Virus genome (UHGV): UHGV-1493261
DNA length: 64,000 nt
Source: a virus
Reading direction: 5' to 3' (one strand)
Shown piece after piece: positions 642 through 34,013 of the stretch. The notes beneath the pieces were generated by a model. That model searched no databases, was not told the origin of the DNA, and saw nothing but the letters and a program-made list of their open reading frames with translations. Positions within the stretch are counted from its first letter, which is position 1; each line of letters begins with the position of its first letter. A program made the translations under genes and the position numbers.

Positions 642-652
642 CTAAATACCCC
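642..652 (+). promoter_or_regulatory. Late-promoter-like motif CTAAATACCCC
   Basis: Analogue of the T4 late -10 element TATAAATA; the same motif recurs upstream of several structural genes in this window. Confidence 0.5.
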
Positions 653-684
653 ATATTGGCAAATCCTCTATGGGGTATCTTCAA

Positions 685-2967
685 ATGACCAGAAACGTCG
701 AGAGCATCTTTGGAGCGGTCGTAACAGCTCCGCACCAGATTCCATACACTTACACAGCAACGGGCGGAGAGAAGTTTATCTCCCTCCCTTTCTACCCTAT
801 CACTGGTATAGTCACAATCAACGGTGGTATGCAAGTTCCGTTAGACAACTTTGAAATCGATGGAAATACGTTGAATCTCGGGCGCGCATTATCCAAAGGT
901 GACGTTGTGTTCTGTCTGTTTGATAAGATTCTGTCTCCAGAAGATTATAAAACCGGGATTCGAATCTATAAGTTTCAGGCTATAGGAGGTGAAACCGAGT
1001 TCACTCCTGATTTCACATCTTATGGAGTCCAATCTCTTTATATCGGTGGTGAGTACAAAACACCCGAAATTGAATATTCCTATGACAGCACGACAGGGAA
1101 AGTGTCTTTACAAACTGCGCTGACTGCAGGCGTTTGGGTAGTCGCTGAAATGTCTGTTAAACAACCGAATATCAGTCCGTTGTTTGACCGAAGTATTCAG
1201 GAAATCGCCCGTTCAGCTAACGTAAAAGATTCTGAAGTGATTCTTAGTTCTGATACTACTCAGTCCCTTAATGGTAAGAAGATTATTTACTCTGTTAGTG
1301 AGCAGAAGACTTATGGTTTGCCAGCATTGCCGCCTAATGTGTACATCAGTTCTGTAACCAATGGACAATTAACCTATAACCCTGGTTCTGTTACAGTACC
1401 TTTAGTTGAAGTGCCTAATTCGGCTGCCAAGTTAAAAAGTGAACTTAATGCCAACACTGGTTCTAGCATGGTGCGTACTAGCTCAGGGATTACTGTTGAA
1501 GAATCCCTAGTTAAATTAAAGGATTCCTTCCAATTAGTAACACCTGAGCAGTTTTATGAGCAGTTCCCTGGTGAAACTGATTGGGCAGTGATGATTAATG
1601 CTGCATACGCTTATGCTCGTGGTCATAACAAAAGCGTATTACTTGCTAATGATTATCCAATCGAAAGTACTATTGTGCATATGGATGGACTTAATGTCAT
1701 ATGTACTGGACGTATTATTGCATCCCCAACTGGTACATATACGCATACCACCGCATCAGGTAATGAAGAGAAGGCTGCTTATGTAATTACTACAGAAAAC
1801 GGGGTGTTCAATAATGCTAAATCGTCTTCAATTATCGGCACTCTTACCTTGACTCACACCACTGACAGAGAGCCTACAGGCTATACAGATCCGCACATCA
1901 ATGCTACGGGTGTTGTTGTTACAGACATTGCCAACGTATACATTTCCAATATTCAAACTTTCGGATTCCTTGATGGTGGAATTGACGTCGGTGGTATCTC
2001 AGGCAACGGTTTTGAAATTGTAATCGACAAAAGTTTGTCATGGATTTACGCATGGGAGGATTCAGAGAAGATTGGTTTCCGTTGTAATGTAACCGATTCA
2101 ACGTTCAAAGACGTAGTAACCGTCGCTTACGGGATTGGAATTCACAACGTAAAAGGTGGTGGTAACGTTTATATCAACCCTCATCCGTGGGGGTACCCTC
2201 TGACTTCCACCAATTCATACCCTAATAGGCAGTGTAAAATTCACTTTGTTTTGACTGGTGGTGGTTCTACTTTTATCAGACCTTACGCGGACACTGTGAC
2301 AAAAATTGACAGTTCACTTAGCTCTAGTAGAGCAAACGGTGGTATAGGCTTTTATGTAGAAAACTGGCGTAATAAAATAATCGCAGGTGAGGCATTGCTT
2401 CATTCAGATGACGTAAACACAAACATGTCTCTGGTGTATCTTAAAGGCGATTCCGCCAGAAATGAGATTGAATTTGTAAATGTAACAAACCCGTCTAAGT
2501 TAATAGCGGAAAGAGTTTCGTATGATTCTGGATACCAAAACGCGTTATTTACTAACCTTGTTAGGGTTCCCGAATATATCGCTGGTAATTTAAGCAATCT
2601 TACAGGAAACATATCATTCAATGGTACAGGGGTTACTTCTTCTGGCACGTACAGTTTACGCAGAAGCGGTGAGTACATAGACATTGCTTTGATTATAAAT
2701 GTGACGTCAATCTCCAGTCCATCCGGTTCGTTATCCGTTACCTTGCCGCGGGGACTTGTTTGCCGTTTTGGTCCTACAGTTGAGCCAAGCCAGAATTCCT
2801 GCTTTGGAAATATCAACCAAAGCAACATTGGGGTGGTGGTGGTGTTGAACGGCAGTTCTATAGAGTTCTATTATAAAACGGCAAATGGCACACGAACTGC
2901 AATTAACGCAGCAGGTGTATCAACTGGTGCTCTTGAATTACATATACGTGGAAAGATTAGTAACTAA
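685..2967 (+). CDS. Tailspike protein (beta-helix, depolymerase-like)
   Basis: Long ORF (track start 670; ATG at 685 has a GGGG Shine-Dalgarno and typical spacing from the late motif). N-terminal anchor-like region and Gly/Asn/Thr-rich beta-helix-like repeats; preceded by the late motif. Confidence 0.8.
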   Translation: MTRNVESIFGAVVTAPHQIPYTYTATGGEKFISLPFYPITGIVTINGGMQVPLDNFEIDGNTLNLGRALSKGDVVFCLFDKILSPEDYKTGIRIYKFQAIGGETEFTPDFTSYGVQSLYIGGEYKTPEIEYSYDSTTGKVSLQTALTAGVWVVAEMSVKQPNISPLFDRSIQEIARSANVKDSEVILSSDTTQSLNGKKIIYSVSEQKTYGLPALPPNVYISSVTNGQLTYNPGSVTVPLVEVPNSAAKLKSELNANTGSSMVRTSSGITVEESLVKLKDSFQLVTPEQFYEQFPGETDWAVMINAAYAYARGHNKSVLLANDYPIESTIVHMDGLNVICTGRIIASPTGTYTHTTASGNEEKAAYVITTENGVFNNAKSSSIIGTLTLTHTTDREPTGYTDPHINATGVVVTDIANVYISNIQTFGFLDGGIDVGGISGNGFEIVIDKSLSWIYAWEDSEKIGFRCNVTDSTFKDVVTVAYGIGIHNVKGGGNVYINPHPWGYPLTSTNSYPNRQCKIHFVLTGGGSTFIRPYADTVTKIDSSLSSSRANGGIGFYVENWRNKIIAGEALLHSDDVNTNMSLVYLKGDSARNEIEFVNVTNPSKLIAERVSYDSGYQNALFTNLVRVPEYIAGNLSNLTGNISFNGTGVTSSGTYSLRRSGEYIDIALIINVTSISSPSGSLSVTLPRGLVCRFGPTVEPSQNSCFGNINQSNIGVVVVLNGSSIEFYYKTANGTRTAINAAGVSTGALELHIRGKISN

Positions 2968-2975
2968 AACATCCA

Positions 2976-2994
2976 CCCCTCTTCGGAGGGGTTT
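2976..2994 (+). terminator. Weak terminator/attenuator hairpin between the tailspike genes
   Basis: CCCCTC-TTCG-GAGGGG followed by a short TTT. Confidence 0.35.
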
Positions 2995-3017
2995 ACTAGA
3001 AAAACGAAGAGGTTGTT

Positions 3018-5666: not shown

Positions 5667-5693
5667 CCTTTCTATTCCTCGGTTGGCTGTATA

Positions 5694-5700
5694 CTAAATA
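5694..5700 (+). promoter_or_regulatory. Late-promoter-like motif CTAAATA
   Basis: actaaatatc 35 nt upstream of the ATG at 5735. Confidence 0.4.
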
Positions 5701-5734
5701 TCTCTATAATGGCACCTATCGATGGAGCATCAAA

Positions 5735-8700
5735 ATGCAAGAAATGAACCTCAACCGCCGCCCATATTGGGATGACTGGAATCCAGAGAAGCGCTTTTCG
5801 CGCATCCTATTCCGTCCGGCACCTATCAAAGTTCAGACGCGTGAACTGAACCAGATGCAGACCATCTTCCAGGATCAACTGGAGAAACTTGGCAACCATC
5901 TGTTCAAAGACGGTTCAATGGTTATCCCCGGCGGCCTGACGATCACCAACACTGCAGTTTCCATGAAGTTCACTCTGGCTGGTGGTAGTGAGTTCACTGA
6001 TCTGGAAGGTATCTCCGAACTCTATGTTCTGGGTAAGGACAACAATGCGAAAGCACGCGTCCTGTCTCTGGAACGTTACCCAGCTGAACCGGATACAATG
6101 TATGCCATCTTAGAGATGACTGAGAGTGGTAGTTCAGACGGTTTCGAAGCTGGCGACAACCTATACTTCAACACCTATGACGTGAACGATAACTTCATCC
6201 GTGTCGGCTATGGTGTGGCCGATACTGTTGGCGGTTCGATTGTCGCTCGCATGACAAAGGGTGTTTATTTCGTTCGTGGTATGTTCCTGGATGTTGAACC
6301 AACCACTTTGATCGTAGACAACGCATCGAACTCTACATCTCACCGCATTGGTTTCAAAGTTACAGAAACAATCGTGACTGAAGCAGAAGATGAAAGTCTG
6401 TTCTCCAATGCTCAGGGTACTCCGAACTCTAAAGCCCCTGGTGCGCATCGCCTGCGCGTCGACCTCGTGTTGTCTCGCTACGATTATGATGAAGAAGTGG
6501 CCGACTTCGTTGAACTGGCGAAGGTGAAAGATGGTCGTATTCAGTCTATGGTCGCCCAGTCAACGTACAACATCCTCGAAGACGCGATGGCTCAGCGCAC
6601 CTATGAGACCAATGGTGACTACAATGTCTCTACTCACCAGATCGACCTGCGTGAACATCTGAAAGAGAACAACAACGGCGGCGTTTACGCTCCGGCTGAA
6701 GGTGGTGATGAAAGCAAATTCGTGGCGGTTATGAAGCCAGGGATATCCTACGTTCGTGGTCGTCGTATCGAAAACCTCGGCGAAGAGCTGGTCACAATTG
6801 ACAAAGCCCGTGACACTGATACCCTGAACAACAACCCTGTGGCTGTTTCGACTGGTAACTATCTGGTGTCCAAGAACTCCAAAGGGGTTCCGGTTGTCTC
6901 CCGTACAATCCGCTACAAGTTCCTGAACGCATCCAGCGATGTACAGGCCACCGCCCTGCTGATTTCGGCAGAGCGCTCCGGTACTGAATTCCGTCTGTAT
7001 ATGCGCGACCTCGTTGTCACCGGGGACATGGGCACGGTGACCAAAGTCGCTTATGAAGAAAGCGGTACAACGATGTTCTCTTGCGAACTGGAGTCCAATC
7101 AGTTCAGTCAGAGTTCGGCGATTGACCTGATCTTCCCTCTTCCTGTATTCGGCGTGAAGACCCTAGCACCTACTGGCACCATCGACATCAACTACACCGT
7201 CCTGCGTTCTAACAAAATCACATTGAACGCGGCAGGCACAGGCTCTATCTCTGCTCCTCTGGGATACAGCTTCAGTCCTGAGTTTTCTTTGTACTCAGCA
7301 GCGAAGGCAGACGGCACCACCGCTCAGTTCGATATCTCTTCGGGGCTGTCCCTGGCTGGTACTCCGGTTGGTTCAGCACTACAGATTTCCCTGGGTGCGG
7401 GGTACGCCAACCAGTCTATCAACCTGTTGGCATTGATGGTCCGCACCACAGCGACGATCAAGACCAAGACTGTTACCGAAGTCACCGAGACTGTGACGTT
7501 TACTGTGGCAGCCAGCGTACAACTTGGGAACCACGACGGATACAAGCTGGTCAGCGTGAAGAACGCAAATGGTGCTGACGTCACCTCGAACTTCACTCTG
7601 GACGGCGGTCAACGCGATGCGGCGTACTACCGTTCTAACCTCATATCGTCTACTGGAGCCATCTCAGGCGTGTTCACAGTGGTGTACCAGTACTTCGCTC
7701 ACAGCTCTGGTGATTTCTTCACAGCGGACTCCTATTCGTCCATCAACTACCCAGACATCCCGAACTATGTTTCATCCAGTTCTGGTACTGTGTATGGGTT
7801 GGCCGACAGTCTGGACTTCCGTCCCAAGATCACCAGCGGAGCGTCTGACACGGACATGGTTCGCCCGAACACCGCGATCATCCTAGATGCAGAGTACTAT
7901 CTGCCTCGTATTGATGCCGTGTATCTGGCAGACAACGGCGTGTTCAACGTTGCTCGCGGTGTGAGTTCCAACAACCTGGCTTCCCCTGCGATCCCAGACA
8001 ACGGCATGCGCCTGTATGAATTAATGATCCCACCATACACAGCCAACATTGACGACATCCAGATTCGCACTATCGACAACCGCCGCTACACGATGCGCGA
8101 TATCGGTAAACTGGAGACCCGTATCTCCAATGTCGAATATTACACCTCACTGTCTCAGCTGGAATCCTCGGCGATGGCGCAACAGGTGTTCGATCCAATT
8201 ACTGGCAACCCGCGCTTCAAGAACGGTATCGCAGCAGACCCGTTCAAAGACTTCCGTCTGATCGACGATTTGTCTGCAGACTGGGTGGGTTCAATCGACA
8301 CTGACAATGGTCGCCTGCGTCCGTTTGTTCAGCAGAACGCGATTGACCTGACGCCAGTCGGTTGGAACAACGTTCAGGATGGTATGGTTGTATGCAACTA
8401 CACCCGTGAGATCTCTGTCCGCCAGGACTATGCAACCACGACCATCAACGTGAACCCGTATGCGGTGTTCAACTGGGAAGGTTTCCTGAAACTGAACCCG
8501 ACTACTGATTACTGGTTTGAGAACTACTATGTTACTCCACGTGTGATCAACGAAACGATCAACACCCGTGGTGCGATCAAAGAAGGTTCTGTGTACGGCA
8601 CATGGCGTACTGTGTCCGTGTCTGAGCGTGTGTGGGAACCGCATGGTGCGGGTGGTGTATGGTGGGGCTACCGCTACCGCACGACTGTGTCCACCCGTGA

Positions 8701-10573
8701 CATTACCACGTACACGTACACCGACAGGACGACTACCACCATGACTGGTGAGCAGATCGTTGAAACGCAGGTAATCCCATACATGCGCAAAACGAACATC
8801 AACTTCGAAGCCACAGGCCTGCGTCCGTTCACTCGTGTGTATCCGTTCTTCTCCGGGCGTGATGTGAGCGCGTACTGTACCCCAAACGGTGGTGTACTGG
8901 GTGGTGCGTTGAACACTGATGCCAACGGTAACATCAAAGGTGTGTTTGCGGTTCCTCAGAACGAGACTATCAAGTTTAACACGGGTGACAACGTCTTCCG
9001 TCTGACTGACAGCCCTGTGGACAGCAAGTCTGCTGATGATACCCTGACCAATGCCGAGGCTGTTCATAAGTCCTTCGGCAAGAAACAGGGCATCCAGAAG
9101 ACTTATGTCAACACCCGCGTCCTGGGATACACTGCGACCAAGTCTACGGAAAACAAAACAGAGACGGTTGAAGTCGCGAAGTGGAAAGATCCTATCGCCC
9201 AGTCCTTCATGGTTGCCACCAATATCGGCGGCGAATATATCGAAGGCATCGAAGTGTTCTTCTCTACCAAGTCTCGCGATATTCCAATCACTTTGGAAAT
9301 CCGTGAGATGAGCAATGGTCTGCCAGCGACGACTGTCGTCACTCGTAAGACTCTGAATCCATCAGAAGTTTCCGTCTCCACAGACTCTTCTGTGCCGACG
9401 ATGTTCAAGTTTGATTATCCTGTGTATCTGCAGGCGCAAACCGAGTTCGCGATTGTTCTCTTGGCCAACACTCAGGACTACAACGCATACATCGCAGAGA
9501 TGGGCAAGAAGAACTTGCTGACCAACGAGTTCATTGCCAAACAGCCGTACACTGGCGTGTTCTTCACATCTTCAAATGGTACGACCTGGACTCCAAACCA
9601 GACTGCCGATATGAAGTTCCGTGTGTATCGCTGTAACTTCTCCGCTGGTTCAAACATCGTGACCTTCGATGCTAAAGTCGGTCCGAAGATCCGCCCTCTG
9701 GGTCTGAACACCGTGAAATGTGTCAACGGTTCTTCAACTGTTACTGTGTACGCTCCGGGGCATGGCCTGACTGCGGGTGAAAGTGTTACTCTGTCTGGGT
9801 TGACGGGTGGTTGCGGTTTCACTCCTGAGCAACTGAACGCTCAACACACTGTGACTGATGCGACGTTCACGACGTTCAAATTCGTTCTGAGTTCCAACGC
9901 CGACTCCGACGGTCAGATTGGTGGTGAAGCGGCTTCTTTCCTAGGCAACTACTTGGTAGACATGTTCTACGCAAGCGTCACCAATTCAGCCCTAGAAGGA
10001 TCTGTATTGAAACTGGAATACCGCTATCGCGATGCGACCTCCAACTCATTCTCTGATTGGGTTGAGTTCGAATCCGATACGGACGTGTCTCTACCGACGG
10101 AAGGTATCTATCGTCAGGTGGGCGACTTCCAGGTTCGTGCAACCATGACTCGCAACGAGAGTAATGTCTACACGGCTCCAATGATTGATGGGGATGATTT
10201 CACTATCATCTTCAACACATACGGTGTGGATCCGTTTGAAGACGTGTTCAGCTACGTGACCAAGGATATCGGATTCGATAACCCTTGCACCACTCTGAAA
10301 CAATACTTCGGCGCGATGCTACCTTCTCAGTCTTCAATGACTGTACAGGTTAAACTGCTGCGCGCAGGTCAGGAGATGGATGACGTGGAATGGGAAACTG
10401 TGACACCGACATCCCCTCTGGTCAATGACGGTTCTACATTCTTCGAATATGAGTATGACAAGACTGTAGCCAGTACCAATCCTTTCGTTGGCCTGAAGAT
10501 CCGCCTGCTGGTCAGAGGCAACCGCATAGCACCGCCGTCATTCAAAGATTTCCGTTTGATTGCTCTGGCATAA
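5735..10573 (+). CDS. Large virion structural protein (1612 aa; tail fibre/baseplate-associated candidate)
   Basis: Uninterrupted 4.8 kb ORF with a GGAG Shine-Dalgarno and an upstream late motif; beta-rich Thr/Ser/Gly composition typical of fibre or baseplate proteins. No family recognised. Confidence 0.75.
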   Translation: MQEMNLNRRPYWDDWNPEKRFSRILFRPAPIKVQTRELNQMQTIFQDQLEKLGNHLFKDGSMVIPGGLTITNTAVSMKFTLAGGSEFTDLEGISELYVLGKDNNAKARVLSLERYPAEPDTMYAILEMTESGSSDGFEAGDNLYFNTYDVNDNFIRVGYGVADTVGGSIVARMTKGVYFVRGMFLDVEPTTLIVDNASNSTSHRIGFKVTETIVTEAEDESLFSNAQGTPNSKAPGAHRLRVDLVLSRYDYDEEVADFVELAKVKDGRIQSMVAQSTYNILEDAMAQRTYETNGDYNVSTHQIDLREHLKENNNGGVYAPAEGGDESKFVAVMKPGISYVRGRRIENLGEELVTIDKARDTDTLNNNPVAVSTGNYLVSKNSKGVPVVSRTIRYKFLNASSDVQATALLISAERSGTEFRLYMRDLVVTGDMGTVTKVAYEESGTTMFSCELESNQFSQSSAIDLIFPLPVFGVKTLAPTGTIDINYTVLRSNKITLNAAGTGSISAPLGYSFSPEFSLYSAAKADGTTAQFDISSGLSLAGTPVGSALQISLGAGYANQSINLLALMVRTTATIKTKTVTEVTETVTFTVAASVQLGNHDGYKLVSVKNANGADVTSNFTLDGGQRDAAYYRSNLISSTGAISGVFTVVYQYFAHSSGDFFTADSYSSINYPDIPNYVSSSSGTVYGLADSLDFRPKITSGASDTDMVRPNTAIILDAEYYLPRIDAVYLADNGVFNVARGVSSNNLASPAIPDNGMRLYELMIPPYTANIDDIQIRTIDNRRYTMRDIGKLETRISNVEYYTSLSQLESSAMAQQVFDPITGNPRFKNGIAADPFKDFRLIDDLSADWVGSIDTDNGRLRPFVQQNAIDLTPVGWNNVQDGMVVCNYTREISVRQDYATTTINVNPYAVFNWEGFLKLNPTTDYWFENYYVTPRVINETINTRGAIKEGSVYGTWRTVSVSERVWEPHGAGGVWWGYRYRTTVSTRDITTYTYTDRTTTTMTGEQIVETQVIPYMRKTNINFEATGLRPFTRVYPFFSGRDVSAYCTPNGGVLGGALNTDANGNIKGVFAVPQNETIKFNTGDNVFRLTDSPVDSKSADDTLTNAEAVHKSFGKKQGIQKTYVNTRVLGYTATKSTENKTETVEVAKWKDPIAQSFMVATNIGGEYIEGIEVFFSTKSRDIPITLEIREMSNGLPATTVVTRKTLNPSEVSVSTDSSVPTMFKFDYPVYLQAQTEFAIVLLANTQDYNAYIAEMGKKNLLTNEFIAKQPYTGVFFTSSNGTTWTPNQTADMKFRVYRCNFSAGSNIVTFDAKVGPKIRPLGLNTVKCVNGSSTVTVYAPGHGLTAGESVTLSGLTGGCGFTPEQLNAQHTVTDATFTTFKFVLSSNADSDGQIGGEAASFLGNYLVDMFYASVTNSALEGSVLKLEYRYRDATSNSFSDWVEFESDTDVSLPTEGIYRQVGDFQVRATMTRNESNVYTAPMIDGDDFTIIFNTYGVDPFEDVFSYVTKDIGFDNPCTTLKQYFGAMLPSQSSMTVQVKLLRAGQEMDDVEWETVTPTSPLVNDGSTFFEYEYDKTVASTNPFVGLKIRLLVRGNRIAPPSFKDFRLIALA

Positions 10574-11940: not shown

Positions 11941-11965
11941 GGCGGGATTACCCGCCCTTCTTTTA
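11941..11965. terminator. Terminator hairpin between convergent genes
   Basis: GGCGGG-ATTA-CCCGCC followed by CTTCTTTT. Confidence 0.5.
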
Positions 11966-12213: not shown

Positions 12214-12234
12214 TTCAAAATTGAGGGTATCGAT

Positions 12235-23120: not shown

Positions 23121-23157
23121 TTCGACTAAGTATAGAAAACATTTAGAGGATATGAAC

Positions 23158-23653: not shown

Positions 23654-24322
23654 ATGATGAAACTGTTGCGTGAGATCACTGCGATAGGGAAAGACCTTCA
23701 GATTGGTGAAGCGGCCACGGCTACTGGCGGCAAAGCCATGTACATCGAAGGTCCATTCGTGATGTGTAACCAGGTGAACCGTAATGGTCGCAACTACGAT
23801 CTCCAAAAGGTGGGTATCCCTGCTGTCGAAGCATACGACAAAGAGTATATCCAGGATCGTCGTGCAATCGGTGAACTCAAGCATCCGGATTATCCTTTCC
23901 CCGATATCGAACACGCTGCACTCAAAACCGAATCTTTGCGCTGGGAAGGCACCAACGCTATCGGTCGAGCGCGGATCCTGAATACACCGAAAGGTCAGAT
24001 CATTCGTGCTCTGGCTGAAGCAGACTTCAACCTGGCCGTGTCTACACGTGGCCTTGGTGAGACCAAGTCAGTGAACGGCTATGATGACGTTCAACCCGGC
24101 TTTATGCTCACTGCTGTTGATGCAGTCGACCGTCCTTCTGGACAAGTTTGTTATGTAAAGGCTGTGAGCGAATCTGTGGAATGGCAGCTTGATGAATCTT
24201 CAGGAATTTGGGTTCCTAAGGACATTAAGGGGCATGTGGTCGATTCATTGGTGAAAACCAATATTCAGTTAGAAGACGACTTCCTGCGCCGCCTCGATAT
24301 CGCATTGAAACATCTGGGCTGA
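23654..24322 (+). CDS. gp21: Prohead core protease (gp21-like)
   Basis: 222 aa; GKAMYIEGPFVMCNQVNRNGRNY resembles remembered T4 gp21 around the catalytic region; position upstream of scaffold and capsid genes. Confidence 0.8.
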   Translation: MMKLLREITAIGKDLQIGEAATATGGKAMYIEGPFVMCNQVNRNGRNYDLQKVGIPAVEAYDKEYIQDRRAIGELKHPDYPFPDIEHAALKTESLRWEGTNAIGRARILNTPKGQIIRALAEADFNLAVSTRGLGETKSVNGYDDVQPGFMLTAVDAVDRPSGQVCYVKAVSESVEWQLDESSGIWVPKDIKGHVVDSLVKTNIQLEDDFLRRLDIALKHLG

Positions 24323-24333
24323 ATTCAGCCTCA

Positions 24334-24340
24334 CTAAATA
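24334..24340 (+). promoter_or_regulatory. Late-promoter-like motif CTAAATA
   Basis: cactaaatact upstream of the scaffold gene. Confidence 0.35.
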
Positions 24341-24367
24341 CTGAAAATCGTTCAGAAGGAAACAATC

Positions 24368-25216
24368 ATGAAACCTGAATTGCAAAAACTATTTGAGGGC
24401 GTTAACGGCCTCAGCACCGACTTCCTGGATAAAGTGTCTGGTCTGCTGGAATCTAAAGTAGAAGCCGCTCGCCTGACCGCTATTCAAGAAACCGAAAACG
24501 CTGCCAACGTTGAGCGCCTACGTCTGGTTGAAGCTCATCAGGCTGAGATTGCTCAGCTGAAAGAGTCTCACTTGATGGAAATCGCGACCAAAGTCGATGG
24601 CTTCCTGAACGCGGTTGTAGAAGAGTGGGCTAACAAGAACGCTCCTGCAATCGATGCTCAGATCAAACGTGAAGCGGCTGAAAATCTGCTGACTGGCCTG
24701 ACTGGTGTTCTGAAAGAAGCTGGTATCAACTTTGCCACCGACGAAAACGGCCAGATCGCTGCGCTGACCGCCCGCCTGACCGAAGCAGAACGACGTGCTG
24801 CGATTGCCGAAAACGAAAACCGTCAAATCAAAGAAGCCGCGAATGCGACTCTGCGTGACTCTGTGATCGCCCGTGTCTGTGAAGGTATGGTCGACACCAA
24901 GAAAGCAACGGTTGTCAATCTGCTGGAAGCTGTGCAGTTCACCACCGAAAGCGAATTCGCTTCCCGCGTACACACCTTCCGCAACCTGGTAGAAGGTAAG
25001 TCCGTGAAGAAAGAAGACGATGACGATGACTTCCAGGACAAAGTCGGCGGAAAAGACGGTGATGACGACAACAAAGATGTTAAAGTCGAAGAAGGCAAAA
25101 AGCCTAAGAAAGAAGGCGATGAAGACGACGATGAAGATGAAACAGACAAAGAGCTGAAAGAATCTATCAAGCGTCAGTTGGCCGACTATAATCGTCGCTT
25201 CGGCATCAACGGCTAA
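24368..25216 (+). CDS. gp22: Prohead scaffolding core protein (gp22-like)
   Basis: 282 aa, highly charged/acidic helical protein with a KEDDDDDF..DEDDDEDE tail, immediately upstream of the major capsid gene. Confidence 0.7.
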   Translation: MKPELQKLFEGVNGLSTDFLDKVSGLLESKVEAARLTAIQETENAANVERLRLVEAHQAEIAQLKESHLMEIATKVDGFLNAVVEEWANKNAPAIDAQIKREAAENLLTGLTGVLKEAGINFATDENGQIAALTARLTEAERRAAIAENENRQIKEAANATLRDSVIARVCEGMVDTKKATVVNLLEAVQFTTESEFASRVHTFRNLVEGKSVKKEDDDDDFQDKVGGKDGDDDNKDVKVEEGKKPKKEGDEDDDEDETDKELKESIKRQLADYNRRFGING

Positions 25217-25229
25217 TTTTAGCAGCCAC

Positions 25230-25255
25230 AGCCCTCGAAAGGGGGCTTGATTTTG
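25230..25255 (+). terminator. Terminator-like hairpin
   Basis: AGCCCTC-GAAA-GGGGGCT followed by TGATTTT. Confidence 0.45.
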
Positions 25256-25307
25256 AACTACTAAGTAATTTCAACTTAACTGAATATCAATGTAAGGAAT
25301 GACCATC

Positions 25308-26633
25308 ATGGCTAAGAAACTTGTTACCGAACAAATGCGCGAGCAGTGGCTGCCAGTTCTTCAGAAAGAATCTGAAAGCATCCAGCCGCTTTCTGCCGAA
25401 AACGTTGCCGTCCGTCTGCTGCAAAACCAGGCTGAGTGGAACGCCAAAAACCTGGGCGAATCTGACGCTCCTGGCTCCGTGAACGCCTCTGTTGGCAAAT
25501 GGCAGCCAGTCCTGATCGACATGGCCAAACGTCTGGCTCCGGTCAACATCGCGATGGACTTCTTCGGCGTTCAGCCGCTGTCTGGTCCTGACGGTCAGAT
25601 CTTTGCTCTGCGTGCTCGCCAGGGCATTTCAGACGGTGGATCCAACACCCAACATTCCCGTAAAGAACTGTTCATGCAGGAAGCTGATTCTGGCTACTCT
25701 GGTGACGACACTGCTCAGGCTGGCGACCCATCTGGCTTTACCCAGACTGAGATCGAAGGTTCCGGCGCTGCCACCACCACCATTGGTAAAGGCATGCCAA
25801 CCAAGGACGCTGAACTTCTGGGCACCACCACCAACCCATGGGCACGTGTTGGTATCACCGTTCAGAAAGCAACCGTGACTGCGAAGTCTCGCGGCCTGTA
25901 CGCTGACTACAGCCATGAACTGCGCCAGGACATGATGGCGATCCACGGCGAAGACGTTGACAGCATCCTGTCCGACGTGATGGTAACTGAAATTCAGGCA
26001 GAGATGAACCGTGAGTTTATCCGCACCATGAACTTCAGCGCAGTACGCTTCAAAAAATTCGGCAAGAACGGCATTGTGGACATCTCCACTGACATCTCCG
26101 GTCGTTGGGCGCTGGAAAAATGGAAGTACATGACTTTCATGCTGGAAGTTGAAGCGAACGGCATCGGTGTTGACACCCGTCGTGGTAAAGGCAACCGTGT
26201 TCTGTGCTCCCCGAACGTAGCATCCGCTCTGGCGATGTCTGGCATGCTGGATTATGCTCCGGCGCTGCAGGAAAACACCAAGCTGGCGATTGATCCGACT
26301 GGCCAAACCTTCGCTGGTGTGCTGTCTAACGGTATGCGTGTCTACATCGACCCGTATGCAGTAGCAGAATACATCACCCTGGCATACAAAGGCGCAACCG
26401 CACTGGATGCTGGTATCTTCTTCGCGCCATACGTGCCGCTGGAAATGTACCGCACCCAGGGTGAAACCACCTTCGCACCACGCATGGCGTTTAAAACCCG
26501 CTACGGTATCTGTGCTAACCCATTCGTTCAGATCCCAGCGAACCAGGATCCACAGGTCTATGTGACTGCGGACGGTATCGCCCAGGACAGCAACGTGTAC
26601 TTCCGTAAAGGGCTGATCAAAGGCCTGTTCTAA
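25308..26633 (+). CDS. gp23: Major capsid protein (gp23-like)
   Basis: DFFGVQPLSGPDGQIFALRA, FKTRYGICANPF and C-terminal YFRKGLIKGLF align with remembered T4 gp23 motifs (DICGVQPMNSPTGQVFALRA, FKTRYGIGINPF, YFRRVYVKGI). ATG at 25308 chosen for Shine-Dalgarno spacing (alternative 25299). Confidence 0.9.
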   Translation: MAKKLVTEQMREQWLPVLQKESESIQPLSAENVAVRLLQNQAEWNAKNLGESDAPGSVNASVGKWQPVLIDMAKRLAPVNIAMDFFGVQPLSGPDGQIFALRARQGISDGGSNTQHSRKELFMQEADSGYSGDDTAQAGDPSGFTQTEIEGSGAATTTIGKGMPTKDAELLGTTTNPWARVGITVQKATVTAKSRGLYADYSHELRQDMMAIHGEDVDSILSDVMVTEIQAEMNREFIRTMNFSAVRFKKFGKNGIVDISTDISGRWALEKWKYMTFMLEVEANGIGVDTRRGKGNRVLCSPNVASALAMSGMLDYAPALQENTKLAIDPTGQTFAGVLSNGMRVYIDPYAVAEYITLAYKGATALDAGIFFAPYVPLEMYRTQGETTFAPRMAFKTRYGICANPFVQIPANQDPQVYVTADGIAQDSNVYFRKGLIKGLF

Positions 26634-26737: not shown

Positions 26738-27796
26738 ATGATTCACATATGCCGGACATGCAAAACCTCATTCGTCAATGCCCAGTCAAAGGCAGTCTAC
26801 TGTAGTGTTGATTGCAGAACCTTTTACCAAACAGTTGGCATCAAATTCTCCCCAGAGTTAATGTCGGACGCCAAATTTATTCAAACGGAAGATGACTACA
26901 AAGACTTCATCCGTGAATATTTCTATATGAAGAATGGCAACCTGAATTACCAACTACTGTCTTCACCCCTGTTGGCATCTTACCTTGGCGTAGACCCCCT
27001 CAAATATGCCAACCAGCACAACTCTGAAGAATCCGTGAACGCCCGTGTATTGGTCTGGTTACACGACGTCAAACCAACACCTTGTATCACCTGCGGTGCT
27101 AGAACTTCTGTCGAGATTAAGAAGTCTATCCCATCCTACCGGAAATATTGTTCGGAGGAATGCTATGCCCAATCAATGAAGTTGGGTGGTGAAGCCCGTA
27201 AAGTCTTGGACAAGACAATCCTTGACAAATATGGTGTATCCAACGTATTCCAGAATGAATCTGTAAAGGGCAGGGCAAGGGCTACCTTACTTCGGCGTTT
27301 CGGTGCGGAACATGTTATGCAATCAGAACATGGGCGACAGCTGTTCAAAGATTCCGTGATGGAGAAGTATGGAGTTGAGCATCCGATGCAGGTGGAAGAG
27401 GTCAAACAACGCGCCTGGGAAACCCTCGGTGCTCGGTCTTGGTATGCTACCCCAGAAGGTAAAGCGGCACGAGAGAAGGCATTCGGGGAGTATGAGGGCG
27501 GTCATCCTATGCGTGATGCTGCAGTCTTAAACAAATTGATCAAGACCAATTTAGAAAGATATGGAAAGGAATGGACGGGACAAGTACAAGAAATTCGAGA
27601 TAAGATAGGAAAAACTGTATTCGATCGTTACGGGGTTAAATGCTCTCTAAACACAGAAGTTTGCTTAGAAAATGCCAGGATAAAAAATATTGAGTTATAT
27701 GGCGTTCCGTATGCTATGCAAAACAAATCCGTTTGGGAATACGTTATTTCTTTCCGTAAATTCCAGTCCAAACCAGAAATAGAAATATCCGAGTAG
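26738..27796 (+). CDS. Homing-endonuclease-like paralog, N-terminal part (zinc ribbons + KYGV repeats), ends at an in-frame amber codon
   Basis: Paralogous to the N-terminal half of the minus-strand gene 18960-20744; TAG at 27794-27796 aligns with a Tyr codon of the intact copy. Confidence 0.6.
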   Translation: MIHICRTCKTSFVNAQSKAVYCSVDCRTFYQTVGIKFSPELMSDAKFIQTEDDYKDFIREYFYMKNGNLNYQLLSSPLLASYLGVDPLKYANQHNSEESVNARVLVWLHDVKPTPCITCGARTSVEIKKSIPSYRKYCSEECYAQSMKLGGEARKVLDKTILDKYGVSNVFQNESVKGRARATLLRRFGAEHVMQSEHGRQLFKDSVMEKYGVEHPMQVEEVKQRAWETLGARSWYATPEGKAAREKAFGEYEGGHPMRDAAVLNKLIKTNLERYGKEWTGQVQEIRDKIGKTVFDRYGVKCSLNTEVCLENARIKNIELYGVPYAMQNKSVWEYVISFRKFQSKPEIEISE

Positions 27797-27805: not shown

Positions 27806-28648
27806 ATGGGTGTTGTACACAAGTGCTCAGACTTCACCCTCCTAAACAATATGAATTGCCAGGACGGTGGAACTCGGCGCCAGATCGACATCTACTGTCC
27901 AGACCACAAACTGGCAATTGAATTTAACGGCCTGTACTGGCATAGTGAGATACACAAATATCGCCGTTATCATCTCGAAAAGACAGAGGCATGTGAAGCA
28001 CAAGGCGTTCAGCTGATACACATCTGGGAAGATGAGTGGCATAACAACCCAGAGATCGTGAAAGGGTTGCTGGCTGCCAAACTCGGGATCAAGAAGCCAT
28101 CCGGGTACGCCCGTCAGTGTTATGTAGAGGAAGGTAAGAAGTCGGACATTCTAGAACTCCTGGCCTCTCAACACATACAGGGCACCATTCATTCGGCCAC
28201 GCATTACCTTCTCCTCAGAGATAAGAGAGACAACCGGGTTCGGGCTGTCATGACCTTTATCAAACGTGTGGTGAAGGGGGAACAGTGTATGGAACTTACG
28301 AGGTTTGCCTCCGACGGCATTCACGGGGCGTTCTCTAAACTGCTGGCGTACTACAAGGAACATCTCTGGGATGGCGTGAAGACTTTCTCCTTTGGCGATA
28401 GGTGTGTTGTTAGTCGGTTGTCCAACATTTATCTTTCTCACGGGTTCGCCGAGGAAGAAATACAAGACCCGGATTACAAATATCACAAACCAGGGACTCT
28501 CATGCGGGAGCACAAGTTTGGATTCAGAAAGACAGACTTTGCTCAGATGGGCTATGACGTAGAAGGTAAGACAGAAGATCAGTTAGCAACCGAAGCCGGG
28601 CTGGTCAGGATTTGGAATTGTGGACTGATCAAATATGTCTTGAACTAA
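27806..28648 (+). CDS. Homing-endonuclease-like paralog, C-terminal part (Vsr/DUF559-like nuclease domain)
   Basis: In frame with 26738-27796 (27806-26738 is divisible by 3); RQIDIYCPDHKLAIEFNGLYWH..IHIWEDEW matches the intact paralog. Confidence 0.6.
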   Translation: MGVVHKCSDFTLLNNMNCQDGGTRRQIDIYCPDHKLAIEFNGLYWHSEIHKYRRYHLEKTEACEAQGVQLIHIWEDEWHNNPEIVKGLLAAKLGIKKPSGYARQCYVEEGKKSDILELLASQHIQGTIHSATHYLLLRDKRDNRVRAVMTFIKRVVKGEQCMELTRFASDGIHGAFSKLLAYYKEHLWDGVKTFSFGDRCVVSRLSNIYLSHGFAEEEIQDPDYKYHKPGTLMREHKFGFRKTDFAQMGYDVEGKTEDQLATEAGLVRIWNCGLIKYVLN

Positions 28649-30590: not shown

Positions 30591-30631
30591 CATATCATAA
30601 ATAATTTGAGTACACACAGCGGAGATACATC

Positions 30632-30802
30632 ATGTTTGTCGTCATCAATCTGTTCTGCTATATCTTCACGGCATACTTCTTGGGCGCGGTAGGGATCGAG
30701 ACCTACAATGACCTGAAGGATGGGGAATACGCCAACCGAATGGTTTATGTCAAGAAGTTTGTTCGTAAGTTCTGGTCCAACTTCGTATACAAACTACCAT
30801 GA
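30632..30802 (+). CDS. Small membrane protein (56 aa)
   Basis: ATG with GGAGAT Shine-Dalgarno; MFVVINLFCYIFTAYFLGAVGI hydrophobic helix; not in the ORF track (under 60 aa). Confidence 0.4.
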   Translation: MFVVINLFCYIFTAYFLGAVGIETYNDLKDGEYANRMVYVKKFVRKFWSNFVYKLP

Positions 30803-30805
30803 TCC

Positions 30806-30816
30806 CTAAATACCCC
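30806..30816 (+). promoter_or_regulatory. Late-promoter-like motif CTAAATACCCC
   Basis: Exact match to the motif at 642 and 34003; 24 nt upstream of the ATG at 30841. Confidence 0.5.
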
Positions 30817-30840
30817 CATCATCCATGGGGGTATTTTCTT

Positions 30841-31569
30841 ATGAACGCACAGATCTATGACGCCCTATCGCAGGGCAACGCCTTTACCAATCCTCTCCCG
30901 TCCCTCAGCAGCGCCTCACAGGGGTTAATCACCAGTGGTAAGGCGACTACAGCGTCACTGGCTAACACCGGAAATACGCAGATTCAGGAAGCGCTGGCGG
31001 CAGGTGGGTTGACTACATCCAAACTCAACGAATCTACAGCAATGTTCAACTCAGCCAACGACAGCATCACTACTTTGAACAACTATGGCTACCAGTCAGT
31101 GAACGAGGCATATTCCCGCATCGGTACATCTGTGTCGTATAAGTCCGCCCTGAAGTCTATAGGTCGAGAACCGAACAACTGTGATCTGATCAATAATGCA
31201 TTTGGGGTTATTCAGAACCTCGGCAAACAGTGGATCAACACAATGCAAAGTGTTCTCACAACTATCACAAACAAGATGAATGAGCTGGCTGAGTTGGTAG
31301 CTCAGGGTGTCAGTGCTGGTCTTGATGCTATTCAGGCACTGGCCGCTGAAGTTACTCAGGCCATCGACACTGCTGTCGCATCAGTAGCCTCTATTGCTCA
31401 GGACATCACGAACGGTATTGCAGCAGAGTTAGCCCATATCCAAGACATGGTTGGTAAGTGTCTTAACTTCTCTTTCGCCAACGTGATCTCAGAGTGGGCG
31501 AAAGATATCTGCGCCGGAGGTGTCATTAACAGCATCGGTTCCGATAATCTGAAGAACGCGCTGAAGTAA
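30841..31569 (+). CDS. Putative late (virion-associated) protein, Ala/Ser/Thr/Asn-rich
   Basis: Internal ATG of track ORF 30799 chosen because the late motif sits just upstream; 242 aa. Confidence 0.5.
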   Translation: MNAQIYDALSQGNAFTNPLPSLSSASQGLITSGKATTASLANTGNTQIQEALAAGGLTTSKLNESTAMFNSANDSITTLNNYGYQSVNEAYSRIGTSVSYKSALKSIGREPNNCDLINNAFGVIQNLGKQWINTMQSVLTTITNKMNELAELVAQGVSAGLDAIQALAAEVTQAIDTAVASVASIAQDITNGIAAELAHIQDMVGKCLNFSFANVISEWAKDICAGGVINSIGSDNLKNALK

Positions 31570-32761: not shown

Positions 32762-32791
32762 TTCTATGACATTGACAAGCTGGGATATTTT

Positions 32792-33244
32792 ATGAAAGAA
32801 CAACTACAGACAATGGCTACCGAGGACATCATGAACGAACTGGAGCCGCTGATCACAGTGGACCCAGAAGACATGAACCTTGACCAGATCTCGCTGAAAA
32901 TCGGGCGCTCTTGGATGGCTGTACAGCGGCATTATCTGCGCGAGGGGCGTTATCTTGAATTTCTCAACGGGCGCTTCCGCCAGATCGATCTCTATCTGCG
33001 CCGCTACTATGCAGGGGAGTTGCCCCCTAACATCTACGCAGAGCGCCCCCTGAAGGTTCGCCCCCTGAAGTCTGACCTGGATACATGGGTCAAAGCAGAC
33101 GATGACTATGTGGAGTTGTCTGTTCTGTTACAAGAACAAAAAGCAAAAGTCAAGTTCATAGAGACTTGTTTGGATCGCCTGAACAAACTGGGATACGAAG
33201 TGAAAAATGCTATTGAGTGGAGAAAATATATTGATGGTGTATAA
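32792..33244 (+). CDS. uvsY: Recombination mediator UvsY-like
   Basis: RRYYAGELP and KSDLDTWVKADDDYVELSVLLQEQKAKVKFIETCLDRLNKLGYEVKNAIEWRKY align with remembered T4 UvsY (DYYSGRG .. KSEMKTVLSADKDVLKVDTSLQYWGILLDFCSGALDAIKSRGFAIKHIQDMRAF). Confidence 0.7.
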   Translation: MKEQLQTMATEDIMNELEPLITVDPEDMNLDQISLKIGRSWMAVQRHYLREGRYLEFLNGRFRQIDLYLRRYYAGELPPNIYAERPLKVRPLKSDLDTWVKADDDYVELSVLLQEQKAKVKFIETCLDRLNKLGYEVKNAIEWRKYIDGV

Positions 33245-33259
33245 CGAGGATCACACATA

Positions 33260-34006
33260 ATGGCATCTCTCCAGGATCTACGCAAGCTGAATGACTTCGA
33301 AAACCGTCATTACACATTCCAGCAATACGAACTTCCTCATAAGGAACTGGAGTGTGTTACGACGGAGAACGGTCGTCATTACGTTTCACCGTCTGGTGTT
33401 AAACTGACATCCGTCACGACTATGCTGGGACGCACTGGAGATCATGAATGGCTTGAGTCTTGGAGGAAGAAGCTGGGCGCAGAGGCCGCTGACCTTGAGA
33501 CTATGCGCTGTGCTGACCGAGGGGAGAAGCTGCACCTTGCGTGTGAACTGTATCTAAAGAACCGCCCAATGAAAGAAGTGTTGGAAGCGGCTGGCGAATA
33601 CATGTTCATGTTCAAGCAGCTGTTCCCTTACCTGAACAAGATGACAAAGATCTATGCTCAGGAGATCCCATTATATAGCGAGGTGCTTGGTCTTGCAGGT
33701 CGTGTAGACCTTATCGGGGTTTATGAGGGTAAACCTGCTGTCATCGACTTCAAGACATCGAACACCATGAAGACGCGGGGCATGATCGAGGATTACAGTA
33801 TCCAGCTGTGCTTATATTCGGTCATGTTCCAGCAGATGTTCGGCGTCAAGATCACCCGCCTCATCAACGTGATTGCCAACGAGTCTTCCCCTCTACCAAC
33901 CGTCATTGAGTTCAACCGTGATGACATTCTGACTAAGATGTTTGAGCGTGTTCGTCTGTATCATCGCATGGATAAAGAACAAAACGGAGTCTGGCCGGAT
34001 CACTAA
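33260..34006 (+). CDS. PD-(D/E)xK nuclease (RecB/Cas4-like fold)
   Basis: GRVDLIGVYEGKPAVIDFKTSNT and QLCLYSVMF give a D .. (E/D)xK .. QxxxY pattern. Confidence 0.6.
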   Translation: MASLQDLRKLNDFENRHYTFQQYELPHKELECVTTENGRHYVSPSGVKLTSVTTMLGRTGDHEWLESWRKKLGAEAADLETMRCADRGEKLHLACELYLKNRPMKEVLEAAGEYMFMFKQLFPYLNKMTKIYAQEIPLYSEVLGLAGRVDLIGVYEGKPAVIDFKTSNTMKTRGMIEDYSIQLCLYSVMFQQMFGVKITRLINVIANESSPLPTVIEFNRDDILTKMFERVRLYHRMDKEQNGVWPDH

Positions 34007-34013
34007 ATACCCC
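34003..34013 (+). promoter_or_regulatory. Late-promoter-like motif CTAAATACCCC
   Basis: Embedded in the last codons of the upstream gene, 22 nt before the uvsW ATG. Confidence 0.5.

Follow-up and report, generated by a model that had tools for sequence, protein, structure and literature searches.

The motif CTAAATAcCcc of Vi1-like phages reportedly originates with the 2012 paper of Adriaenssens et al. in Arch Virol. A 2020 paper on the family quotes it as one of two regulatory motifs called unique (PMC7283392), and in the record of Dickeya phage LIMEstone1 (NC_019925) the counterparts of 8/8 of the exact upstream sites described below, uvsW included, are each annotated 'putative late promoter', as predicted in the LIMEstone1 paper as well. 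These Viunalikevirus (Ackermannviridae) promoters were predicted on an in-silico basis, as were ours, and no transcript mapping or expression timing for any Ackermannviridae phage was found in the literature.

Late promoters of phage T4 likewise consist of a single AT-rich box at −10, without a −35 element. The T4 box, TATAAATA, has its first base at −13 and occupies −13 to −6, with an AT-rich stretch just 3′ of it (PMC2988020), and such boxes lie before virion genes and before uvsW, whose transcription in T4 starts at a late promoter (PMC3016281). In the T4 genes e, soc, 49 and I-TevI, a hairpin masks the ribosome-binding site, and the DNA of the late promoter encodes the 5′ strand of this hairpin (PMC3014915). 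Outside the family, the nearest recognisable gp55 homologues are those of T4-like cyanophages (about 30% identity), whose late box is itself a T4-box variant according to a passage quoted in PMC3184105; cyanophages differ in the box variant and in the host RNA polymerase.

The window analysed here, a 64-kb stretch of DNA, belongs to an Aglimvirinae phage (Ackermannviridae, Vi1-like) that is 96–97% identical to Escherichia phage A221. It carries the same motif sequence as LIMEstone1, at orthologous positions shared for the tail spike, VriC-like gene, gp14, gp18, gp19 region, gp22, ORF130, ORF129 and UvsW, and nothing essential differs beyond the window being another member of the group, near A221. 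An earlier note on this DNA, made from the sequence alone, had described the motif as reported for Vi1-like phages, and the 2020 paper and the LIMEstone1 record bear this out. The late-promoter interpretation is supported in each part open to a check, but it has already been predicted and published for the family and is not new: the motif finding re-derives published in-silico annotation in one more genome and adds no new biology. The statistics given here are stronger than motif-matching alone. What looks like the one new addition concerns the cCcc tail, which the published motif includes and which we read as one arm of a hairpin, not as promoter sequence.

Occurrence and position of the CTAAATA core

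The window contains CTAAATA in 11 exact copies, 11 on the + strand and 0 on the − strand, against 3.98 expected by chance on both strands together; 0/100 shuffles reached 11 copies. Eight of the 11 begin 25–55 nt 5′ of a curated + strand start codon (binomial P = 1.5e-10), a zone (−55 to −25) that makes up 3.1% of window positions, and in an unbiased scan CTAAATA was the most enriched 7-mer of this zone (8/11 copies, hypergeometric 5.9e-13). This confirms the observation of the earlier note. The note had listed CTAAATAcCcc at eight coordinates; the exact core stands on the + strand at each of them, while the full 11-mer CTAAATACCCC is restricted to 642, 30806 and 34003 in the window, and the CCCC tail is present at 3/8 exact upstream sites. 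Its estimate of 20–40 nt to the start codon was about right, with 23–42 nt separating motif end from ATG. Measured from the motif start, the distances are 43, 41, 30, 49, 33, 34, 35 and 32 nt for tail spike, VriC-like, gp14, gp18, gp19, gp22, DUF7217 structural and uvsW genes, respectively. The degenerate copies that it saw before the portal, gp67-like and capsid genes were also recovered (Table 1). Judging from sequence, 685 and not 670 is the most likely start of the first tail spike gene: the ATG at 670 lies within a hairpin arm, LIMEstone1 matches the downstream ATG in alignment, and PHROG tail-spike profiles match the 685 product from its first residue.

Table 1. Late-promoter-like elements, hairpins and transcription genes of the window
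Feature	Position	Strand	Context
CTAAATACCCC, late-promoter-like element	642–652	+	before tail spike gene (685–2967); orthologue 'putative late promoter' in LIMEstone1
Hairpin AUACCCCAUA...UAUGGGGUAU	646–678	+	RNAfold −16.3 kcal/mol, z = −4.0
CTAAATA	5694–5700	+	before VriC-like large structural protein gene (5735–10573); kept in A221, bering, LIMEstone1
CTAAATA	12205–12211	+	before gp14-like neck protein gene (12235–12885)
Hairpin AUACCUUCA...UGAGGGUAU	12209–12230	+	RNAfold −10.2 kcal/mol, z = −3.0; predicted to sequester Shine-Dalgarno GAGGG
CTAAATA	16497–16503	+	before gp18 tail sheath gene (16546–18441)
CTAAATA	20793–20799	+	before gp19 tail tube gene (20826–21359)
CTAATTA variant	21395–21401	+	before gp20 portal gene (21426–23120)
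CTAAGTA variant	23126–23132	+	before 56-aa ORF 23158–23328 (gp67-like)
CTAAATA	24334–24340	+	before gp22 scaffold gene (24368–25216)
CTAAGTA variant	25261–25267	+	before gp23 major capsid gene (25308–26633); right after terminator-like hairpin 25230–25247
ATAAATA variant	30597–30603	+	before small ORF 30632–30802; 'putative late promoter' in LIMEstone1
CTAAATACCCC	30806–30816	+	before DUF7217 structural protein gene (30841–31569)
Hairpin AAAUACCCCCAU...AUGGGGGUAUUU, then UCUU	30808–30836	+	RNAfold −17.2 kcal/mol, z = −3.4; terminator-like, predicted to sequester Shine-Dalgarno
CTAAATACCCC	34003–34013	+	overlaps stop of upstream exonuclease gene; before uvsW-like helicase gene (34035–35543)
gp45-like sliding clamp gene	36273–36941	+	weak Pfam gp45-slide_C match, E = 0.002; annotated in A221, bering, LIMEstone1
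CTAAGTA, possible weaker site	38431–38437	+	before regA-like gene (38468–38932); conserved in 4 genera
TATAAATA (T4 consensus)	57550–57557	−	43 nt before − strand gene 56747–57514 (PHROG 3833)
gp55-like late sigma factor gene	58099–58890	+	PHROG 234 'late sigma transcription factor', E = 3e-52
Terminator-like hairpin with CTAAATA in loop	63089–63124	+	RNAfold −15.6 kcal/mol; promoter status uncertain

The same unbiased scan in Kuttervirus bering placed CTAAATA as the top 7-mer, with 8/8 copies in the zone (4.9e-14), and in Aeromonas phage TSW001, whose tail tube protein is ~51% identical, it placed TAAATA at the top, with 8/10 in the zone (1.8e-12). In a stretch of Vibrio D533 CTAAATA is weaker (3/9, 1e-3), and the top 7-mer is the sigma-70-type GTATAAT. 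The copy before gp18 is kept in both the Aeromonas and the Vibrio phage despite diverged leaders. In other genera the orthologous sites have ATAAATA, TATAAATA or TTAAATA: the VriC-like gene of TSW001 is preceded by TTAAATA plus a hairpin, and the 30806 site appears as TATAAATA in bering and as TTAAATA in a Klebsiella phage. Variants in the window also have exact counterparts elsewhere, with CTAAATA at the position of the 23126 element in bering and the Klebsiella phage and at the regA position in A221. A position table of 13 sites contains no conserved upstream column and no −35-like element; only A at −1 is favoured, and the four bases 3′ of the box are pyrimidine-rich, also at hairpin-free sites.

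Predicted late promoters and the gp55-like sigma factor

On these grounds the motif is almost certainly a T4-style late promoter, as its likening to the T4 late −10 element in the earlier note implied: TAAATA is shared with the T4 box, and (a)CTAAATA agrees with it at 6/8 positions. The first two box positions are aC here versus TA in T4, and the bases 3′ of the box are pyrimidine- or C-rich here versus AT-rich in T4, where this is a tendency and not a strict requirement. As in T4, the elements come with gp55-, gp33- and gp45-like genes. The gp55-like sigma factor that had been placed at 58099 is borne out by its PHROG match, and tblastn matches it to cyanophage proteins annotated gp55; it had no Pfam match and no PDB sequence match. 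At 263 aa and with a long C-terminal extension, this putative sigma has diverged very far from the T4 protein, too far for its specificity to be read from sequence. The gp33 gene lies outside the window and is annotated in A221 at 85411–85656.

The elements are thus very probably the late promoters of this Ackermannviridae phage, with the cCcc tail probably a hairpin arm at a subset of sites. As predicted, these promoters would be −10-only, with a core (a)CTAAATA in which just TAAATA is invariant, and would be read by the host core RNA polymerase with the phage gp55-like sigma. As in the T4 model, help would come from gp33 and from the gp45 sliding clamp, the activator of T4 late transcription, on replicating DNA, and initiation would fall ~6 nt 3′ of the last A of the box. 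The sequence shows motif position, strand bias, enrichment and conservation; initiation at these sites, its spacing from the box and its late timing are inferred from it.

Together with intrinsic-terminator-like hairpins, the elements would cut the structural module into short units: the tail spikes; VriC to gp13; gp14 to terL; gp18; gp19; gp20; a small ORF with the gp68-like gene and the 23654 gene; gp22; gp23; small ORF 30632; the DUF7217 structural protein; and uvsW. The 12205 site likely heads gp14-gp15-terS-terL. The 56-aa ORF is followed by the gp68-like gene and then by the 23654–24322 gene, which is annotated as head maturation protease in bering and LIMEstone1. The earlier note had assigned two of these genes to the late class. 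One, then unannotated, begins at 30841, and its LIMEstone1 orthologue ORF129 is a 'confirmed structural protein', consistent with a late gene. The other is the uvsW-like gene (Pfam UvsW_N, ResIII and Helicase_C), for which T4 uvsW and the annotated late promoter at the orthologous LIMEstone1 site point the same way. Ackermannviridae are in use as reporter and biocontrol phages, which gives practical value for engineering both to a precise promoter core and to the recognition that the C-rich tail may gate translation instead of belonging to the promoter.

The C-rich tail as a candidate hairpin arm

At 642, 12205, 30806 and weakly 34003, the box ATA and the C-rich tail would form the 5′ arm of a hairpin, with the Shine-Dalgarno sequence and then UAU as the 3′ arm. 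At 646–678 the 5′ arm runs from the motif's ATA and the Shine-Dalgarno GGGG lies in the 3′ arm; in A221, bering and LIMEstone1 the arms are conserved and the loop is variable. Both arms of the 30808–30836 hairpin are likewise kept around a variable loop in 9 IMG/VR relatives and 4 genera. The 34003 site has weak pairing only (CCCA/UGGG, −7.2 kcal/mol, z = −0.5). Across the whole A221 genome, an 8-bp hairpin begins exactly at the ATA of 8/54 TAAATA sites (base rate 0.29%, P = 4.5e-12), an association that is limited to offsets +2 to +5, replicates outside the window (5/28, P = 1.9e-8) and ranks TAAATA top among all NNNATA hexamers. A strong hairpin accompanies just ~15% of TAAATA sites.

Arm sequences vary between sites while complementarity is kept. 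The tails CCTTCA, TCCTCGC, GCCCAT and CCCCTA each meet their own complement, including UAU pairing with the box ATA, in arm-pairing counts taken from sites selected for pairing. This matching argues against a promoter made of the whole 11-mer CTAAATAcCcc, in which the gp55-like holoenzyme would contact the C-rich tail like a discriminator and Shine-Dalgarno complementarity would be incidental, a C-run pairing with a G-rich ribosome-binding site. Such a promoter would account for the quotation of the 11-mer as the family motif, for its presence at five places in A221 and for pyrimidine richness just 3′ of the box even without a hairpin. It fits poorly with the scarcity of CCCC at the exact upstream sites of the window, with Aeromonas and Vibrio sites that have no C-run, bar one with a hairpin, and with the AT preference 3′ of T4 late boxes, and we regard it as unlikely. 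The 3′ tail is probably not part of promoter recognition.

If the tail is instead a hairpin arm, RNA arriving from upstream would fold the hairpin and mask the ribosome-binding site, and at 30806 the hairpin may also terminate the upstream transcript; a transcript from the late promoter, without the 5′ arm, would be translated. The arm starts at the box ATA, and with T4 spacing assumed (box −13 to −6) the late start would fall inside the hairpin. Read-through into the 642 and 12205 genes may be small because of good terminators upstream (184–205 and 361–384 for the former, 11941–11956 for the latter), and the 30806 site is directly 3′ of several clustered small ORFs that are non-structural. 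Even the late RNA predicted for 30806 could cover its ribosome-binding site with a structure, though a weaker one (−5.7 kcal/mol).

At seven start-codon-proximal sites the 3′ arm ends 4–9 nt before the start codon, which is annotated in every case except A221 153142, where the gene runs off the record end. We see about an even chance that cCcc is no promoter sequence at all but the anti-Shine-Dalgarno strand in a 'late promoter plus stem-loop' cassette that Ackermannviridae reuse before ~seven genes per genome, genes that would be translated only from late-promoter transcripts. Its layout would be xTAAATA, anti-SD, loop, SD-UAU, 4–9 nt and AUG, and its genes would include those for the tail spike, neck, DUF7217 structural protein, a peptidoglycan-binding protein and a small membrane protein. 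One A221 copy has an exact TATAAATA before a membrane protein gene. The cassette appears mobile between genes: it is found before the VriC-like gene in the Aeromonas phage and not in the enterobacterial ones.

The geometry is that of T4 e, soc, 49 and I-TevI: the 5′ arm has the box at its base, the 3′ arm contains the Shine-Dalgarno sequence, and late initiation would take place within the hairpin. Unlike in T4, the hairpins here precede tail spike, neck and other structural genes, with ~seven start-proximal copies in A221, and some are also terminator-like; read-through and repression here are putative. If the cassette reading is true, the T4 way of restricting translation to the transcript that starts late would be widespread and modular outside Tevenvirinae, in a far more systematic use of a trick known from four T4 genes.

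RNA-level and sigma-70 readings of the motif

The motif is strand-specific and located in leaders, and the whole gp18, gp22 and gp23 leaders are conserved across genera, as would also be expected if it acted in RNA, either as an AU-rich, RNase E-type processing site in the 5′-UTR or as a stabiliser maturing polycistronic late mRNA. Even in T4, primer-extension ends are not always separable from processing sites (PMC2988020). A role in RNA is nevertheless hard to reconcile with the 6/8 match to the T4 late box and the drift of orthologous sites to exact TATAAATA, and the encoded gp55-like sigma needs some promoter. At 34003 the motif overlaps the upstream gene's stop codon, and elsewhere it sits 3′ of terminator-like hairpins at 5647 and 25230, so that little upstream RNA is expected there. 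We consider this explanation very improbable.

A weak −10 box for host sigma-70, active early or in the middle of infection with no phage sigma factor, is a barely credible reading of the motif: TAAATA matches TATAAT at 4/6 positions and a sigma-70-like TTGGCT-N16-TATAAT overlaps the motif at 5694, but no −35 is conserved at the right spacing, the 5694 overlap is missing in LIMEstone1 with CTAAATA retained, TATAAT words form a separate k-mer signal (TATAATTC, enriched upstream with copies before 18578 and uvsY, and the GTATAAT of Vibrio D533), and the genes downstream encode virion components.

Three exact copies that the earlier note did not list fall outside the upstream zone. Those at 12245 and 63687 lie within coding sequence and are probably due to chance. 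The copy at 63101–63107 lies in the loop of a terminator-like hairpin, and A221 has a similar arrangement at 70607.

The CTAAATA box and its distribution

By megablast, the window belongs to subfamily Aglimvirinae of the Ackermannviridae (Vi1-like myoviruses), with 96–97% identity to Escherichia phages A221, PC3, and PH4 and ~87% identity to Dickeya Limestone-like phages. Gene annotation was transferred from A221, Salmonella phage bering, and Dickeya phage LIMEstone1. Nearly all genes lie on the + strand, beginning with the tail spikes, a VriC-like large structural protein, gp13, gp14, and gp15, followed by terminase, gp18, gp19, and gp20, and then by the head genes gp68-like, the 23654 gene (annotated as a head maturation protease in bering and LIMEstone1), gp22, and gp23. 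After gp23, a run of small ORFs leads to the gene for a DUF7217 structural protein, then gp3, uvsY, an exonuclease gene, and uvsW; gp45, gp44, gp62, and regA follow, with a gp55-like sigma factor and then gp47 and gp46 farther 3′.

The earlier note had proposed CTAAATAcCcc as a T4-like late-promoter motif preceding structural genes and uvsW. Its observation of CTAAATA is confirmed and statistically strong: the window holds 11 exact copies, all on the + strand, where 3.98 are expected over both strands, and 0 of 100 shuffles reached 11 copies. All eight positions that it named carry the exact heptamer, each before a start codon (see table). When positions were compared with a curated list of 65 + strand starts, 8/11 copies began in the zone 25–55 nt ahead of a start codon, which makes up 3.1% of positions (binomial 1.5e-10), and in an unbiased scan of all 7-mers in this zone CTAAATA ranked first (8/11, 5.9e-13), ACTAAAT second, and CTAAGTA sixth. 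The degenerate CTAATTA and CTAAGTA forms were likewise found, each before its gene: the portal gene, a small ORF, and the capsid gene. The longer motif stood only in part, as the CTAAATA core is present at 8/8 sites and the full 11-mer CTAAATACCCC only at 642, 30806, and 34003.

Among 13 compiled window sites, A occupies position −1 in 10 and pyrimidines directly follow the box, with no −35-like column. The sole exact copy of the T4 late-box consensus TATAAATA in the window lies on the − strand (57550–57557), and is likely an extra late promoter outside the range of the earlier note. Copies of CTAAATA within coding sequence at 12245 and 63687 are probably due to chance.

Box-bearing sites in the window, with the predicted transcription units, predicted terminators, and hairpins assigned to them
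Position	Box	Strand	Downstream gene or status	Predicted unit and terminators	Hairpin arms	RNAfold (kcal/mol; z)
642	CTAAATA	+	tail spike, start 685	tail spikes; terminators 184, 361 before and 5245, 5647 after	AUACCCCAUA with UAUGGGGUAU	−16.3; −4.0
5694	CTAAATA	+	VriC-like protein, start 5735	VriC to gp13; terminator 11941 after
12205	CTAAATA	+	gp14, start 12235	gp14 to terL	AUACCUUCA with UGAGGGUAU	−10.2; −3.0
16497	CTAAATA	+	gp18, start 16546	gp18; terminator 18447 after
20793	CTAAATA	+	gp19, start 20826	gp19
21395	CTAATTA		portal gene (degenerate copy)	gp20
23126	CTAAGTA		56-aa ORF that precedes gp68-like gene (degenerate copy)	small ORF, gp68-like gene, 23654 gene
24334	CTAAATA	+	gp22, start 24368	gp22; terminator 25230 after
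25261	CTAAGTA		capsid gene (degenerate copy)	gp23; terminator 26659 after
30597	ATAAATA		further candidate	further unit
30806	CTAAATA	+	DUF7217 protein, start 30841	further unit	AAAUACCCCCAU with AUGGGGGUAUUU	−17.2; −3.4
34003	CTAAATA	+	uvsW, start 34035	further unit
38431	CTAAGTA		regA (further candidate; A221 has exact CTAAATA there)
57550–57557	TATAAATA	−	43 nt before gene 56747–57514 (PHROG 3833, function not assigned)

The 80 nt upstream of orthologous genes were aligned across A221, bering (a Kuttervirus), LIMEstone1, a Klebsiella phage, Aeromonas phage TSW001, and Vibrio phage D533, and the motif is retained at the same genes. In TSW001 and D533, whose tail tube proteins are 51–57% identical, the leaders have diverged apart from the motif: gp18 and gp3 are still preceded by CTAAATA, and gp22 by CTAATTA or CTAAGTA. 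Applied to annotated starts, the same unbiased k-mer scan returned CTAAATA as the top 7-mer in bering (8/8 copies in the zone, 4.9e-14), TAAATA (8/10, 1.8e-12) and CTAAATA (5/6, 2.5e-8) on top in TSW001, and a weaker CTAAATA signal in D533 (3/9, ~1e-3), where the sigma-70-type GTATAAT was on top. The orthologue of the 30806 site is the exact T4 box in bering and TTAAATA in the Klebsiella phage, so that only TAAATA is invariant.

The gp18, gp22, and gp23 leaders (16480–16545, 24320–24367, and 25228–25307) are near-identical over 50–80 nt across Kuttervirus, Limestonevirus, and Klebsiella-phage genomes, although their proteins share only 77–100% identity over the first 120 residues. The constraint on the three leaders exceeds what a 7-nt box would account for.

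Predicted late promoters, transcription units, and machinery

Every available sequence-level test supports the late-promoter reading, as does the literature on the family. A 2011 paper described the ViI-family late promoter as unidentified (PMC3184105), and in 2012 the LIMEstone paper predicted 33 late promoters in silico from similarity to T4 (PMC3296691). A 2020 paper on another family member gives “CTAAATAcCcc” as one of two regulatory motifs called unique (PMC7283392), in line with the statement in the earlier note that the motif had been reported for Vi1-like phages. The GenBank record of LIMEstone1 carries a “putative late promoter” at the orthologues of 642, 5694, 12205, 16497, 20793, 24334, 30597, 30806, and 34003, and the sequence beneath each such feature was checked. 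The motif reportedly goes back to the 2012 paper in which the genus was proposed. Literature searches (the motif with late promoter; Ackermannviridae transcriptomics) returned no experimental transcript mapping for any family member.

Two genes had been assigned to the late class from the motif. The gene at 30841 encodes a DUF7217 protein whose LIMEstone1 orthologue is annotated “confirmed structural protein”, and uvsW has the LIMEstone1 promoter feature and a T4 counterpart that is expressed from a late promoter (PMC3016281). The late-promoter reading, with uvsW placed in the late class, thus correctly re-derives a prediction that had already been published.

The proposed gp55-like sigma factor was also borne out. 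The ORF at 58099–58890 matches almost the entire PHROG 234 profile (“late sigma transcription factor”, E = 3e-52) and shares ~30% identity with cyanophage proteins annotated as gp55 in tblastn; its gp55 membership is based on these two results, as Pfam and PDB sequence searches gave no match. The window also encodes gp45 (36273–36941), and gp33 is annotated in A221 beyond the stretch homologous to the window. Homologues of gp55, gp33, and gp45 had been noted in earlier family papers.

A late transcription map drawn from the boxes and terminator-like hairpins is plausible (table). A separate sigma-70-like signal, TATAATTC, is over-represented upstream of genes, among them the 18578 ORF and uvsY; matches in a sigma-70 consensus scan end at 18529 and 32762. 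At 5683–5710, a near-consensus sigma-70-type promoter (TTGGCT-N16-TATAAT, 10/12) overlaps the CTAAATA that precedes the VriC-like gene (5694), and is kept in A221 and bering and missing in LIMEstone1. The sequence CTAAATATTTAC at 20793–20804 is nearly palindromic and presents GTAAATA on the − strand, facing a homing endonuclease gene 60 nt away (18960–20744, − strand, PHROG 3339); at its counterpart, the LIMEstone1 record has late promoters annotated for each strand. A terminator-like hairpin (63089–63124) has the CTAAATA at 63101 in its loop, with a similar arrangement in A221 (~70601–70625). If these copies are functional, a late start within hairpins of this type would lie in the 3′ arm, and the transcript would escape termination.

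A predicted hairpin at the motif tail

At 642, 12205, and 30806, the final three box bases and the C-rich bases after them are the complement of the Shine-Dalgarno sequence and the TAT that follows it (table; z-scores against dinucleotide shuffles). Structure is weak or absent at the remaining window sites, with a weak CCCA/UGGG helix at uvsW. To test this without selecting sites by hand, the complete A221 genome was scored at every position for an 8-bp hairpin whose 5′ arm starts there (loop 3–22 nt, ≤1 G-U), which gave a base rate of 0.29%. The 5′ arm begins exactly at the ATA of TAAATA at 8/54 sites (P = 4.5e-12), and the signal is limited to offsets +2 to +5. Among the 64 NNNATA hexamers, TAAATA is the top one for hairpin starts (14.8% vs ≤3.1%), and the association replicates in the part of A221 that is non-homologous to the window (5/28, P = 1.9e-8).

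Further A221 hairpin sites precede a peptidoglycan-binding protein gene (TTAAATA ... GGAGGTATTTTCTTATG), a small membrane protein gene (box identical to the T4 consensus), a tail spike gene, and the gene at 84285, whose palindrome, scored again on the other strand, is the eighth site; in TSW001, a hairpin site precedes a VriC-like gene. The 3′ arm ends 4–9 nt before the start codon at seven gene-facing sites, and that codon is annotated at all of them except the 153142 case, which runs past the end of the record. Arm sequences vary from site to site and complementarity is kept, which speaks for a nucleic-acid structure and against a shared DNA-binding protein; a repressor reading the inverted repeats was rejected because of this variation. 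Pairing counts on eight paralogous hairpins are illustrative only, since the sites were chosen for pairing, and the unbiased test is the A221 enrichment. Among nine loci encoding relatives of the DUF7217 protein, the arms of the stem hardly vary (one C is missing in LIMEstone1), so these orthologues speak neither for nor against covariation. Among the matches listed for the pattern TAAATACCCC...GGGGTAT in IMG/VR, contigs of Ackermannviridae size (150–160 kb) are mixed with many unrelated ones; the scan had no control and is uninformative.

T4 late boxes span −13 to −6 (PMC2988020). If this spacing applies, the late transcript would begin within or past the 5′ arm and would be unable to fold into the hairpin, which RNA arriving from upstream could form. 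Such an arrangement has been described for T4 genes e, soc, 49, and I-TevI (PMC3014915). The link between hairpin and motif tail is a modest new point that resembles an arrangement already known. The 30806 hairpin is followed by a U-rich run and directly preceded by a block of small non-structural ORFs, and so may both terminate and mask.

The published “cCcc” probably reflects the hairpin subset of promoters and not promoter recognition. A CCCC tail occurs at only 3/8 window sites, the distant phages TSW001 and D533 show no C-run except at the hairpin site, and T4 prefers AT after the box. Our confidence is only moderate, as good terminators upstream of 642 and 12205 put the need for gating at these two sites in question and the start sites are predicted. 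A placement of hairpin promoters at early-to-late junctions that have no upstream terminator was rejected, since 30806 alone fits it cleanly and 642 and 12205 have terminators upstream.

A possible reused cassette and gene map corrections

The translation initiation region GGTATTTTCTTATG recurs in the window (30827–30843), in A221 (73360–73376), and in TSW001 (L006, 7950–7966), before the unrelated genes for the DUF7217 protein, the peptidoglycan-binding protein, and the Aeromonas VriC-like protein, respectively, which suggests a reused cassette of promoter and stem-loop. In LIMEstone1, the gp14 promoter, hairpin, and first codons are present a second time (9568–9610) beside the inserted − strand ORF152, and the functional gp14 has a different leader without the hairpin; the second copy looks like a target-site remnant of mobile-gene insertion.

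The tail spike most likely starts at 685, correcting the ATG at 670 in the gene map, because the latter falls within the arm of a hairpin, the LIMEstone1 sequence aligns with the second of the two ATGs, and tail-spike profiles match from residue 1 of the 685 product onward. Just 3′ of the capsid gene, the adjacent ORFs 26738–27796 and 27806–28648 match the N- and C-terminal halves of one homing endonuclease family (PHROG 3339), and their A221 counterpart is a single 662-aa ORF; the pair looks like a split or frameshifted homing endonuclease gene. Finally, a strong terminator-like hairpin (39844–39868, 11 pairs and a T-run) overlaps the first ATG of the long ORF 39857–41086, the true start of which is doubtful; the LIMEstone1 record annotates a terminator just within the orthologous CDS.
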